64,000 nt of DNA from Eledone cirrhosa (GCA_964016885.1 OZ024742.1:351850001-351914000); one strand, 5' to 3'. Counted from the stretch's first letter, positions 4,780-63,474 are shown. The notes: generated from the letters alone by a model not told the origin. Made by a program: numbers and translations.

Positions 4780-4983
4780 GGAGAAAGTATGACCCCGACG
4801 GCAGAGCTCAAGCCGTTTCGACAGCTATTTCTGGACTAAAGTGTCCAGAAATAGCCGTCGAAAAGGCTTCAGCTCTGCCGTCGGGGTCATACTTTCTCTT
4901 ATTACTGACTCAACTACTCTAAGTATTGAGTACTCTGGTGCGTTATGGTCCAACTGGTTCCTTACCACAACTCTTCCGTTATA
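4780..4983 (+). mobile_element. (TA)n-inserted hairpin element, family A (3' half of a hammerhead plus a conserved tail)
   Basis: Palindrome 4780-4899 plus tail. Family consensus GAAA-CGGC...GCCG-TC-GGGG. Other copies: 6674-6836, 8349-8542, 29731-29928 (minus), fragment 53745-53790. Confidence 0.8.
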
Positions 4984-5029
4984 AGTATATATATATATAT
5001 ATATATATATATAATTCAAAAGGAAAATA

Positions 5030-5700
5030 TATAGAGAGAAAGTGAAAAAGGACCATATATGTAAGAGAGTACATATTGTATATATACAAAGCACATATTT
5101 ATAAGACACATATGTACTTAGAGGAAAACAACAAAATTGCCTCTAGCGCTGCTATTTCATTTTTTTGTAAACCGCAACCACTTGGGTATATGTTTCTTTC
5201 TCTCTTTATATATATATTATATACATATATCTGTTACTTTTGAATAATTTTAGCTGTGGACAAATTCTAATCAACTTTTCTATTGAGAACCACAAAAATT
5301 GAAAGTGTTTATGTTTTGATACCATATATATATATATATATATATATATATAAATAGAGTCCTGGTTATCGAGTTGAGCTCTGCTGATGATGAATTCCAA
5401 ATGTGACCATCTCCACTGAGAGTTTTCATGAAATAGTCTTTAAGACTATACAGAGCATTTGAAGTTTTTCCAAATTGAAGGATAAGTATTTTAAACTTTA
5501 TTTTATCATGAGTTAAGGCTCTATTGATTTTTCCCTGGATTTCACTAAATTCTGTGGATGAATTTATATCCTGATTCTCTTTGAGATGAGTTTGAATTAT
5601 TTTTCCCACATCTTACGTTAACTATTTTTCCCATGTTGACGCTATAGTCACTTGTATATTGTGAAATGCTGTTCGCTTTTCGCTGCAGTGTTTTCTATAC
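5030..5700 (-). mobile_element. Old L1-like ORF2 C-terminal relic, interrupted by (TA)n and a hammerhead element
   Basis: Minus-strand fragments RESGYKFIHRI, WFSIEKLI and PKWLR...EIAALE resemble the L1 C-terminal region; many stops. Confidence 0.4.
5378..5456 (+). ncRNA. Type I hammerhead ribozyme
   Basis: Stem I GCTCTG/CAGAGC; CTGATGA 5384-5390; stem II TGAA/TTCA with a long loop; GAAA 5430-5433; stem III ATAGTCT/AGACTAT; cleavage triplet AUA. Confidence 0.8.
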
Positions 5701-6887
5701 CTTTCATTTATATATATAAATATATATATATATGTGTGTGTGTGTGTGTTTGTGTGTGTGTCTATGTGTGTGTGTGTCTGTGTTTATGTGTATTTGTGTG
5801 TGTGTATGTCTGTGTGAATTTTTAAAAGACATCTTTGAATATCACATTATTGTTTGCTCTCTGACGCCTCCTAGTATAGGAATGGCTGTCTGCCAGTAGA
5901 TTCACACAACATTGCTTGTTGGCAGCATTTGCCGTTGTGAAAACTGATCAGAAGAATAGGTCAGTGATCTATACTTGATATTACGTATACAAGATACAGT
6001 GAATTTCCATTCCAATAATCAATTAATTAAACACTGCCGCCTATCAAAAAGGAAGTTCTGGTACATCTAAATGTTGTCCTTTGAATATACAGAAAATTCC
6101 ATTTTTTGTTCAATCAATATTGTTATTACTTTTGTCTCCGAACACAGATTATTAATGCACGTGTGCAAGTATTCACAGTTGATCTGTATATATCACTTGC
6201 ATATGTTTGAAAAATCAGGTTAATACTTTCATGTAGAAAGTAAATAAAATGGAACTAAATATGTTAATGTATATATCTTGCAGCTGTCGACATTACATTC
6301 CTTTACATTCACTCTTACATATTTCCATATATTTCTGAAACAACAATATATATATATATATGTATATATATACATACATATGTATATATATATATATATA
6401 TATATATATATATATATATATATATATATATATATATATATATATATATATATATATATATATATATAATACATAAAAGGCTTCTACAGGACTAGAACTG
6501 TTTCATTCAGGAGAAATCATCTGGTTTTTCCTTATGATTTCTCCCGAATGAAAGAGTTCTACTCCTGTAGAAGCCTTTATATATTGAATATGTGTACTCT
6601 GCTTTGTATTGAGTACCTTACTTACTGTGGATAACCACCATTGAACCCAGATGAACATTATATATATATATATAGGTAAACGTTTAACCCCTACGGCAGA
6701 CCTCAAACCGTTTCGACGGGTTGAGCTCTGCCGTCGGGGTTAAACTTTTTCCTATTACCCACTCTACTGCCCTAGGTATTGAGTACTCTGGTGCGTTATG
6801 GTCCATCTGATTCTTTATCACACCTCCTTTGTTATATATATATATATATATATATATATATATATATATATATATATATATAAATAT

Positions 6888-59822: not shown

Positions 59823-59886
59823 TTTATCTGATGAGAACACAACATCTGTCCCAGGATGATGTTGTTTTCGAAATGCGCATAATAAA
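59823..59886 (+). ncRNA. Type I hammerhead ribozyme
   Basis: Stem I TTTAT/ATAAA; CTGATGA 59828-59834; 12-position stem II GAACACAACATC/GATGTTGTTTTC (1 mismatch); GAAA; palindromic ATGCGCAT; AUA site; (TA)n about 40 nt downstream. Confidence 0.82.
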
Positions 59887-60806
59887 ATATATGGAACTTT
59901 TTTAACCACCTTTTAATTTCTTTATATATATATATATATATATATATATATATATATATATATATATATATATATATATATATATATACATATATATATA
60001 TATATATATATATATATATGTGTGTATTTGTGTGTGTGTGTGTGTGTATGTGTGTGTATATAATTTCGGGCTTAATGAATTCATGTCATTTGAAATAGAA
60101 ACAGAAATTCATTAATATAATGGTACATCATTTTCTTTTTTCTAGGGTTGCCGAATCTAGAGCAATGTGGTAATCATATATAGTTATATCCAGAATATGA
60201 TAATATTTTGTTATCCTCTCTATTTTTTCTCTTTTCCCTAAATTAGACTAGACAGAGACATTACCATATATTCTCAAATATCAACTAATCTATATATAAT
60301 CTAAACTCCTATTTTATGCCTGAGAAATGGGCAAAAATCGAAAGCCCGTTTATAAGCTGAGGTAGCTAATCAATACATTATGTTTAGATGGTGTGGTTTT
60401 GAGAGAGCAATAAAATAAAATCAGATTTCTATGTTACTTTTTTAAGCATTCTAGGGGTGCAGATGAAAACATGTTCATTTTAGAAGACTTGCTATCAAAG
60501 AAAATTATTCTTACGTAACAAAGCCATTTATTTGTCTCTATTTTCCTCTAATAATATATAACAGAGTTGCCAGTCCACTCAAAGATGCCATACAGTGTTG
60601 TTTCAAGATTTGTTAATATTTCATCAGGGACACACATTCAATCCATACTGGCATGGAAATAGACTAAAGTCTATATAAAATGTTGCAGGTTGTTGTTTTA
60701 AATGTCCACTTTCCCTGCTAGCAAGAGTTGGACGTATAAATATGTATATATATATATATATAAATGAAAGTATAGAAATTATTGTGAGCATGAAGCCAAC
60801 AGTACT

Positions 60807-61951
60807 TCATATATATAAAACATAGGATGTTTGTCTGTGTAAATCCCTAGATCTCGAGACGCACCCAACCGATATTTTTCAAACTTTACACATACGTTAC
60901 TTATATTTCTTGAAGTGCAATGGGCTGAGGTACGCATTAGGCGCATTAGGCGAATAACCGCATTTTTTAGGCATTTTTAGTAATTTTTGAGGCGTTACTT
61001 AAAGATAATGCAACCGATTTCCTCAAAATTTGCAGCACACGTTAGATAGTCCACTTCAATTGCTGTGAACAAAAAGATTTCCGATTTCATTAATGGTTTC
61101 TAGGAAATTTACGAATTAGCATTGGGCATTACATGCCTTTTTTTATTTTCAATATAAACGCTACTTAAACATCATAAGTAACCTATAATATTTCGTTAAA
61201 ATATTTGATTTATTTAACAGAGGACACACAACTTACTTACCTTTAAGCAGGACCATTTTCGTGGGGTTGAGGAAATGAGGAGTACCTTAAAATATTTGTC
61301 GCCACCCTGTAGACGCTTCGTACTTTCCTCACGCACAAATCCGGGCCCAGTGTACGTTGCCGTATTATTGAAACCGTAAAACTCACGTCTGTGCTACTTC
61401 TACTAATACCCCTTTTTTGCATCTACACTGCAGTATGAACGTCCTGAAGAGCGGTTGTGCTAATTCCGCAGAGACCCCTTTTGTCGCACTTTTTGTTGTT
61501 GTGTAAATGCAGTGCGACCAGTGCCGCCCAGGCTTTGTACTAATTGCACTATGACCCCCTTCTGCTGCAGCTGCGTTGCCACGCTGATTTCGTCATCTCA
61601 ATATCCCTACTTAAACGTTCATCTCTACTTGGTTTTCACACAATTGACTACGTCACTTTGTCAGACTGACGTGTGTTCCCCATCTGTGACGTAATTCGTG
61701 AACAGACTTACGACATACATCGCCCCACAACACTTACGTACTCCTTTCGCATACAGGATTTCCCCCGTCAGCCCACTGACACCGCTACTATTGGATTCTA
61801 CCTGCTGGTGTTCTACGTTTCCAGTAGATCAACAATCATTCCCTGAGAATAAGAGAATTCAAAATGTTCACACATACATTCCTCAATCTTTGCATATACG
61901 TGTTGCTATTTCATGTTTCCTACCCCGTGCAACGCCGGATCCTGCTGCTAC
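60807..61951 (+). mobile_element. Non-autonomous Helitron (related termini)
   Basis: Starts TCATATATATAAAA; ends with a CCCGTGCAACGCCGGA hairpin followed by CTAC|T (decayed CTAG). Confidence 0.7.
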
Positions 61952-63474
61952 TATATAATAAATGAACATATAAACATGGCAGAAATTACGAATTTCTCAT
62001 AAATATGAAAATATGATAAACACCTTTAATACATTTTTAGATCTAATTCTACTCACATTAGAAGACGTGAATATCCTCCAAACAACCACAAGGAAACATA
62101 TTTCAAGTTACCTATTTCATGTTTCGTAGTATTATTCTGAAATGGACGCCATAATGTGTATGCAATTAACATTCATGTTGTTAATTAATTCAAATATATA
62201 TATATGAATAAGTGAACTAGCAGACAAAGCGTACGATCAAGTTTGCTATTGCACTTCTTAACATATATCTTGAATAATTAGCAGCACGAGCGCTAATTAT
62301 ATGTAAATTATTACGTCCATTTCAGAATATTGCTACTTCTCAACATTTGGCCGATGCTCTACGGATAACATCTTGGATGAATTCGTCACTTTTTCTGTAA
62401 GTCAAATGATATATAATGCATAAATCATCATATGATTTACATGGCTAAAATGTGAGCATAAAAATGCTATTAACTATTTAGACCTATGCTGTTACATGTA
62501 TGTACAACACGGATTCTAACAAAACATTTTGAAAAGAAAATTGACGGAACATATACAAGAACGCTGCTAGTTGCGCTGGATATATACTGGAGACAACAAA
62601 CTGCAAAATAACTTATTGAACAATGGAGGTCGGTAGAGACTGGAGAAAAGGAGTGGTGATCAGCCGTGCAAAAAGCACGCCCGTGTTATGACGGATGTTG
62701 TTAAATTATTTTAGATTTCCTGGAATATAAGTTCTTATTGTGAAGTTTAAAAGGACAATGTGCCCATTATATGGTAGCGGCTTGTGTCGAAAACGTTAGG
62801 GAAAAGGGAACTAATGACTGTAGACATATAGATTTACAATATGAGGTAATCTTCAGAATAATGTTTTAAACATATACGATATTTTCCCGTTTTCTTAGAG
62901 TAGGATATATGTAAATATTTTGTAAAGAACTCACACATTATATGTTGAATACGTGCATGAAACTATATATCTATCGATATACGAATATGCATGTACATAC
63001 AAACACATACATACATACATATATATATATATATATATATATATATATATATATATATATACATTTAGAAACACACAGATACATGCGGACACACACATAT
63101 ATACATGAATACATCCGCACCTAACTGTGAGTTAAGGGTGCCAACTTCACCGATGTTGCTCAATGAATGACTGGGACAGACCAATTCAGTTTGAACCAGA
63201 CTGAACCAGTATCAGAGTTAAAAATACATTATGAAGAGAGAAGAAACATTTAGATATAATTAGTAATAAAATGTATCATACCTAAACTGTTCCTAAATTC
63301 CTCGACTACGTAGTTTCGTGGCATAAACAAAAACAATATATCAAAGATATAGAGTCCTTGCGAGGTCTGCCGACTTATCAAGAGGATACCTCATTTTACT
63401 AGTCTCAAGAACGCGTCTACACGACGTGAGAAAGAATCCCAAAAGGCGGAGGGGGAGATAGTCACGCGATATAT

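Follow-up and report, generated by a model that had tools for sequence, protein, structure and literature searches.

Why are so many hammerhead ribozyme folds found beside (TA)n microsatellites in one stretch of the Eledone cirrhosa genome? The stretch (GCA_964016885.1 OZ024742.1:351850001-351914000; 64,000 nucleotides, all of which we call the window) had received a first-pass annotation that proposed a large radiation of non-autonomous elements, dependent on Penelope-like elements (PLEs) and targeting (TA)n, with more than 10 unrelated hammerhead families. Our analysis identifies the window hammerheads mostly as 5'-truncated 3' ends of coding Hydra-clade PLEs, accompanied by several retrozymes that lack an open reading frame (ORF). 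It also suggests, with a probability of roughly 0.7, that these insertions end at two fixed sites, each shortly followed by a conserved RNA stem, the likely anchor of the reverse transcriptase (RT).

Hammerheads in the window

Hammerheads were sought with a type I descriptor (core CUGANGA or UUGANAA, GAAA, NUH and three scored stems) and compared with 60 dinucleotide shuffles of the window in which the TA tracts were fixed in place. Intact-core matches numbered 12 against 1.58 ± 1.46 in shuffled sequence at scores of at least 22, and 10 against 0.55 at scores of at least 28. Permitting one core mismatch gave 21 against 9.8 and 13 against 1.9 at the same thresholds. One of the 12, at 26977, looks like chance and was discounted, leaving 11 credible intact type I hammerheads. 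About seven damaged or variant ones (4628, 33445, 43068 and its tandem copy, 50706, ~6520 and ~33680) bring the total to ~18. The first-pass annotation had counted about 19 cores; a fold is present at all 12 of the coordinates that it named, as are all seven of its palindromic stem III words. With one-mismatch and U4A copies included, the hammerheads form 13 families, which are unrelated in primary sequence only. A strict first descriptor gave just 2 matches because it barred a U.U or mismatched first stem II pair and the U3-A8 core, and it was replaced.

All 11 credible hammerheads lie 42-244 nt from a (TA)6+ tract, a neighborhood (within 250 nt) that holds for 42% of random window positions at a tract density of 1,700 per Mb; the proposed association with (TA)n is thus borne out. 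The separate 3' halves, of which about nine had been annotated, fare less evenly. Those at 4797, 8367, 8442, 26373, 34604, 49770 and 56462 fall inside repeated units, but the 3'-half pattern taken alone is weak (40 in the window against 24 ± 5 in shuffles). The family at 4780 (F14) has a member with an intact hammerhead at L065 (L-numbers label loci other than the window). Rfam gave no family at gathering score in the window, hammerhead models included, and no hammerhead family is among the 150 of 223 matches listed; the long stems II may be the cause of the missing match. In E-value mode, its matches to microRNA models were microsatellite and palindrome sequence and were rejected.

Conservation and scale of the hammerhead folds

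We extended the search to 79 stretches of 10 kb (790 kb), at positions hand-picked on larger contigs. This sample holds 85 hammerheads against 5.0 in shuffled sequence at scores of at least 28, a 17-fold excess, and they occur in 38 of the 79 stretches. The window is typical of the genome in hammerhead content. The sampled density, 108 per Mb (bootstrap 77-142), extrapolates to ~3x10^5 hammerheads in 3.0 Gb, the U4A variant excluded. At scores of at least 31 the matches form 29 clusters; 17 contain a single match, and chance may account for some of these. Four clusters (F1, F3, F15 and F26) were false folds in ORF or satellite DNA and were removed from the family analyses. Among these, F26 alone came from the sample, where its 2 matches, with score 26, lie below the threshold of 28 used for the count.

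When positions 3 and 8 of the core were left free in the sample and window together (854 kb), C-G was found 65 times and U-A 16 times, the other 14 combinations occurring 0-4 times each, close to the shuffled level. In 23 copies of F0, 92.8% of cells are paired and 8 of the 18 stem pairs change on both sides. The covariation score was reached by 0 of 500 shuffles, a control that ignores relatedness, and in all slid controls pairing drops to 35-53%. Stem changes are visible too in F9, F16 and F4. These patterns indicate that the hammerhead folds are under selection, and the stem covariation among family copies that the first-pass annotation anticipated is present. The likeness that it drew to the minimal hammerheads of PLEs needs amending: stem II exceeds 40 nt in 30 of the 85 sampled hammerheads (maximum ~120), with U.U at its base in 20. 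Stem III measures 6-19 nt and is a perfect palindrome in 45 of the 85.

Of the 85 sampled hammerheads, 64 have a (TA)n tract in the next 250 nt downstream and 30 have one as near upstream (controls, 17-27%). Conversely, element 3' ends are in contact with at least 154 of 505 TA blocks in the sample and, for the window, with at least 27 of 66, in a census whose element library was derived from the same loci. The suggestion that these elements make up a large share of TA-flanked DNA is thereby upheld. Since such ends adjoin no fewer than 30% of the sampled TA blocks, repeat libraries may file a large class of TA-flanked DNA without a cause.

Parentage of the families

Six window families (F0, F5, F8, F9, F14 and P713) run upstream, at other loci, into an ORF for a Hydra-clade RT and endonuclease. 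Their short units are therefore 5'-truncated copies of coding elements, and the proposed dependence on PLEs is supported. In F8 the ORF ends 132 nt upstream in one of 30 loci (L222). In F9 it lies upstream in 5 of 30, and one locus (L391) has the hammerhead, two stems and the ORF. For F5, L193 and L217 share 780 nt of untranslated region, with a further copy at L206; for F0, L184 runs from the pseudo-long terminal repeat (pseudo-LTR) to the ORF. The P713 ORF, of 713 aa, is the commonest PLE ORF type in the sample. Read by eye at L126, it has RW, DKT, CxCx5C, and CxxC and CxH around the nuclease E and N; RWR replaces RWK, CCHH is absent and the endonuclease is C-terminal. The published motif list of the Hydra clade comprises RWK-like, DKT, CxCx5C, CxxC and CxH motifs and no CCHH (PMC8557442), and by these motifs the P713-type ORFs and the families linked to them belong to this clade. 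A canonical hammerhead lies near the 3' end of F0, F5, F8 and F9; P713 has a U4A core (CAGAAGA; one CAGAGGA) in 27 of 30 loci (L120-L149). PLE ORFs are many in this genome: Hydra-like ones (30-50% identity) occupy ~3% of the sample and other PLEs 0.6%. The intact ones are young, with copies 97-98% identical.

Five other families (F7, F16, F28, F29 and F4) consist of head-to-tail hammerhead units without an ORF. The proposal that the elements are non-autonomous thus stands for these five and fails for the six that are ends of coding elements. The units measure 595 bp in F7, where the longest ATG frame has 76 aa, 318 in F16, ~840 in F28, ~627 in F29 (a period of 625-636 in 6 of 25 loci) and 321-511 in F4. 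The F16 unit is 71% like a Neptune-type PLE 3' end over 235 nt (compared with L032). Two consecutive intact hammerheads are absent at the window locus, where the F7 array has a damaged GAAA and F16 an altered core at 43068; an intact F7 dimer occurs at L071. These arrays, at 50380-51460 and 42867-44040, also exceed the 150-600 bp that had been given for the non-coding units. A further five window families were placed in neither group. For F21, no tandem period was found in 30 loci and no parent ORF in these and two upstream stretches, and for F12 no parent ORF was found in 25 loci.

Other PLE clades are present. L081:2772-8814 is a full-length Neptune-type element in which two pseudo-LTRs flank the frame for a 938-aa RT and GIY-YIG protein; its U3-A8 hammerhead is small, and its ends lie at +14 and +143. 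L150-L179 hold a young Poseidon-type family (P905), with ORFs up to ~905 aa, which ends in (TA)n and has a descriptor-passing hammerhead in 2 of 29 oriented loci. Separately, window 49041-49466 and 51712-52072 form one family with two TA-abutting ends ~50 nt apart, in which the descriptor scan found no canonical hammerhead; its long tail has a 12-nt word in common with the P905 tail.

Two fixed ends and their pairing

In 30 loci, F7 copies stop at unit position 428 or 595, directly on TA, that is, 80 or 247 nt past the predicted cut. The short end was also found on TA in 11 contigs of a public sequencing run. The 5' ends are scattered and likewise meet TA; since plain 5'-truncated ends abut TA, the (TA)n tract must pre-exist. 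Of 55 F7 5' ends, 9 lie near the cut site; the ends do not clearly pile up at the ribozyme. Most families tested have two end peaks (e.g., +17/+97, +21/+89, +44/+136 and +55/+197), and the hallmarks of PLE insertion are seen: partial tandems, an inverted 5'-truncated arm and a one-sided tail, here of ~60-170 nt.

When two arms stand head to head, one nearly always has the long end and the other the short. Among 142 such insertions scored in 14 families, 132 are long+short, 7 long+long and 3 short+short, where independent choice of ends would give about half long+short. Four of the long+long exceptions are F4, whose short end is undefined, and two of the short+short ones are F9, in which a TA-like stem III was taken for the end. 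F16 was left out of this scoring because its reference sequence is too short. In F7 and F21 the rule holds with either end on the main arm. The BLAST arms of F7 overlap by at most 10 nt or leave a gap of at most 18 nt.

Twin stems beside the two ends

In 12 of 12 Hydra-type two-ended families (shuffled tails, 0.3) an RCUC starts 5-13 nt past the short end and pairs with a GAGY farther on. This stem has an outer pair that is A-U in 9 families, G-C in 2 and A.C in 1. The stem is absent from Neptune- and Poseidon-type tails and from F4 and F16. Read-through copies of six families have a second stem 5-11 nt past the long end, clear in P713, F7, F14 and F29 and variant in F28 and F5. Upstream of 8 divergent Hydra ORF starts the stem is present in 5 (0.5 shuffled) and long-looped in 2, and one copy is truncated. 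The order observed is hammerhead, short end, stem 1, long end, stem 2, and then the ORF or the next unit. We also compared by eye six published Hydra consensuses (File S7, PMC8557442): the stem is clear in Hydra-2_Amil, Hydra-2_Ajap and Hydra-1_Ajap, occurring twice ahead of the ORF in the last, and is looser or outside the comparison in the other three. The evidence obtained blind comprises the second stem, these consensuses and the family at 49574 (stem III ACAATTGT), which lies outside the 12 families that defined the stem.

A de novo k-mer ranking of 31 tails did not place the stem at the top (TGAGT 11 against 4.6), and the plain stem pattern was found in 12 of the 31 against 2.6 shuffled, because the set mixed clades and tails interrupted by a short interspersed element (SINE). 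The tail stem was also compared by eye with a twister ribozyme, a reading we dismissed since the loop-4 motif is missing.

A possible mechanism of insertion

How could an insertion acquire two different ends? A Poseidon PLE protein cuts and extends both DNA strands in vitro, with hammerhead cleavage dispensable, and its RT starts at two internal sites that bound the tail, downstream of the hammerhead (PMC11167929). The two fixed ends found here match this tail between two internal start sites. We lean slightly toward a model in which Hydra-clade PLEs use the twin stems as telomerase-like anchors, one RT per stem priming on one (TA)n strand, and in which the stem has been conserved from corals and sea cucumbers to the E. 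cirrhosa genome. The GIY-YIG domain would cut both strands of a (TA)n tract, and two RT molecules, one per stem, would prime from the two DNA ends on opposite strands. Each would copy independently upstream through an uncleaved or religated hammerhead. The cDNAs would stop at unrelated points, often inside hammerhead hairpins, and would then be joined head to head. Because the start sites lie near the 5' end of the ribozyme-cut unit, the template would be an uncleaved tandem transcript or a circle. The hammerhead sets neither insertion end; it likely processes tandem transcripts into units. F7, F28 and F29 keep the stems and therefore likely use Hydra proteins, so that the ORF-less tandem retrozymes would borrow the enzymes of Hydra PLEs.

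If this is true, twin-stem anchors explain the PLE tail and the inverted insertions, and a 150-250-nt cassette would be enough to make any RNA cargo. Twin-stem priming would also have produced ~300,000 hammerheads here, ~20x the density reported for axolotl (126,247 motifs in a 28-Gb genome, with a different descriptor).

Several points weigh against two fixed, stem-anchored ends or against the parentage on which they depend. The cut-offs between short and long ends were drawn from the data that were scored, and several loci were retrieved by a query carrying one end, a possible bias. The stem was first noticed in part of the tails later counted, which means that the 12 of 12 were not scored blind, and its outer pair is mismatched in both F7 stems and in the second F28 stem. 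The Neptune-type F6, which is stemless, pairs long+short in 4 of 4 cases; the stem is therefore not needed for the rule in all PLEs. The Poseidon study found start sites alike on both strands, and the pairing of ends lay outside its tests (PMC11167929). Assignment to the Hydra clade was made by motifs against the published list rather than by a tree, Pfam gave no match in the 713-aa protein, and the ORF parentage of F14 comes from one locus (L065). For the 23 F0 copies RNAalifold predicts a non-hammerhead fold, the covariation having been counted on the named hammerhead structure instead, and among the monomers folded the three-way hammerhead was often not the lowest-energy structure.

Alternative explanations

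The rival that survives best, which we regard as improbable, is single priming followed by fold-back. RT would start at one site only, and its cDNA would loop back on itself to be copied; the second end would arise when the endonuclease cuts at the other site, and the stems would serve as signals, either within single-stranded DNA or to the nuclease. The tail has been attributed to resolution by the nuclease (Craig et al., PMC8557442), and the D. virilis nuclease requires tail sequence (PMC11167929). Many inversion points fall in hammerhead hairpins (near -40 in F8 and F14), and most inverted arms could be copies of the opposite arm. However, neither arm can be a copy of its partner at L010 and L020, where the arm with the short end is longer and the one with the long end holds extra tail sequence, and both start sites are seen as RT starts in vitro in the Poseidon element (PMC11167929).

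A still less probable view is that all units are non-autonomous retrozymes spreading as circular RNAs. The five ORF-less tandem families fit it, as do F7 arrays of up to 5 units in which both inverted arms can exceed one unit, and circles have been shown for coral, mussel and axolotl retrozymes. As a general claim, it is refuted by the six families that run into a Hydra ORF. Moreover, uncleaved tandem transcripts, the main in vitro substrate of the Poseidon study (PMC11167929), explain the arrays equally well, and of 9 Xenopus retrozyme dimers assayed in vitro, 8 failed to cleave.

Finally, it is hardly credible that the folds arise by chance in DNA rich in AT and palindromes, or that the units are small DNA transposons ending in terminal inverted repeats. 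TA tracts are dense, many units are palindromic and the 3' halves alone barely stand out, but this view is refuted by the 17-fold excess of full folds, the C3-G8/U3-A8 covariation, the compensatory stems and the pairing of ends; the unequal arm ends, variable inner junctions and ORF linkage also speak against it.

Features and other repeats of the window

Table 1. Hammerhead-related features of the window, in order of position
Coordinates	Strand	Feature	Details
4427..4723	+	F0, 3' end of coding Hydra family	core 4628 (G8 changed), predicted cut after 4673, short end at TA
4780..4985	short arm -, long arm +	F14 head-to-head pair, 3' hammerhead half only	tail stem on long arm
5352..5715	+	F29, part of ORF-less ~627-bp tandem unit	core 5384, predicted cut after 5450, long end
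6469..6658		F8 head-to-head pair, decayed	
6675..6832		F14 pair, decayed	
7895..8091		F8 (coding Hydra) head-to-head pair	core 7960 (+), predicted cut after 7998, tail stem 8026-8046
8105..8201	+	P713 tail-only piece	96% identical; 713-aa ORF elsewhere
8350..8539		F14 head-to-head pair	ends +17 and +97, tail stem 8468-8493
26341..26425	+	3' half	stem III ACAATTGT, short end
26454..26893		F21 head-to-head pair	core 26792 (+), predicted cut after 26841
27334..27382	-	P713 short-end piece	
29734..29927		F14 head-to-head pair	
33215..33602	+	F40 partial tandem	core 33445 (G8 changed), stem III ATGCAT
33627..33842		P713 head-to-head pair	U4A core variant on -
34012..34180	+	F9, 3' end of coding Hydra family	core 34085, predicted cut after 34130, short end
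34477..35090		F4 head-to-head pair	core 34909 (+), stem III ACTAGT, no tail stem; periods 321 and 511 elsewhere
41435..41887	+	F28, part of ORF-less ~840-bp tandem unit	core 41631, predicted cut after 41733, tail stem 41795-41830
42867..44040	2.5 units -, inverted arm +	F16 318-bp tandem	U3-A8 cores 43068, 43874
49574..49907		ACAATTGT family head-to-head pair	tail stem 49830-49856
50380..51460	-	F7 595-bp ORF-less tandem retrozyme, 1.7 units and 55-bp inverted short arm	predicted cut 51222, U3-A8 core 51301 intact; GAAA of other unit damaged
51548..51712	-	F12	core 51664, predicted cut near 51600
52141..52566		Palindromic pair, 84% related to Neptune-type family 3' end	without intact core
53744..53790	+	F14 short-end piece	
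56385..56470	-	3' half	stem III ACCGCGGT
59781..59922	+	F5, 3' end of coding Hydra family	core 59828, predicted cut after 59881, short end
63061..63473	-	F7 single truncated unit	core 63381, predicted cut 63304, long end

The window also holds two decayed copies of an RT of the long interspersed element type, at 6883-7687 and 54720-55850. The first is 5'-inverted with (TA)n on both sides; other retroelements therefore also land in TA tracts. A 619-aa open frame at 39497-41356 (-), with an RVT_1 and a weak zf-RVT match and a close copy in L085, is presumably L1/Tx1-like. A ~190-bp SINE-like repeat (1768-1952, 8212-8334, 13011-13352, 14503-14692 and ~15 more) lies mostly far from TA; it has no hammerhead and interrupts some hammerhead tails. 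A 28-bp minisatellite of 48.6 copies spans 15934-17281, with a related piece at 14856-14927, and further palindromes lie at 41194-41406, 62126-62336 and 1178-1239, two of them adjoining TA.

Comparison with known systems

Hammerheads in PLEs, the (TA)n targeting of the Hydra clade, the PLE tail and PLE-derived retrozymes are already published; the scale and the twin-stem rule are new. The described Hydra-clade PLEs, which include one octopus family, have canonical hammerheads, and nearly all insert in (TA)n (PMC8557442). The elements of E. cirrhosa are like them (e.g., Hydra-1_Obim) in protein motifs, the hammerhead near the 3' end, (TA)n insertion, partial tandems, the inverted 5'-truncated copy and the one-sided tail. 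They differ in abundance, since that study lists few families (21 from Repbase and 6 new) whereas Hydra-like ORFs fill ~3% of our sample, and in tail length, which is 30-40 nt there and longer here, with long stems II and U3-A8/U4A cores. Neither the twin stem nor the long+short rule was found in the available text of PMC8557442. The main text of an octopus repeat annotation (PMC13282606) does not contain the words "hammerhead," "ribozyme" or "Hydra." A literature search that left most subscription journals and Repbase reports uncovered yielded no account of the twin stem or of the long+short rule, nor of a copy number like this one.

The tandem families resemble animal non-LTR retrozymes, which are ORF-less tandem units, a few hundred bp long, with a type I hammerhead and related to PLE pseudo-LTRs (PMC7229834; 10.64898/2026.07.22.740005). 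Unlike those, the units here form short arrays and inverted pairs inside (TA)n and have the two-end signature of PLEs; the stems of F7, F28 and F29 are of Hydra type, whereas F16 is like the end of a Neptune-type element. Minimal PLE hammerheads share with ours a palindromic helix III, many divergent families per genome and a predicted use as dimers (PMC4209133). With stems III of 6-19 nt and stems II that are often long, the E. cirrhosa hammerheads are closer to canonical than to minimal ones.

The Poseidon element PAc of Anolis, for which a dimer is predicted, offers the nearest likeness in mechanism: two RT starts bound its tail, and AT-rich DNA is cut and extended on both strands (PMC11167929). 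It belongs to another clade and starts in an AC-rich stem-loop inside the ORF, and the available text on PAc describes neither a conserved twin stem nor a pairing of two ends per insertion. The origin of tandem and inverted PLE insertions and of their one-sided tails was left as an open question by Craig et al. (PMC8557442). With more than 100 scored insertions, a near-strict long+short rule, a covarying stem and young ORFs, the E. cirrhosa elements make it directly testable.

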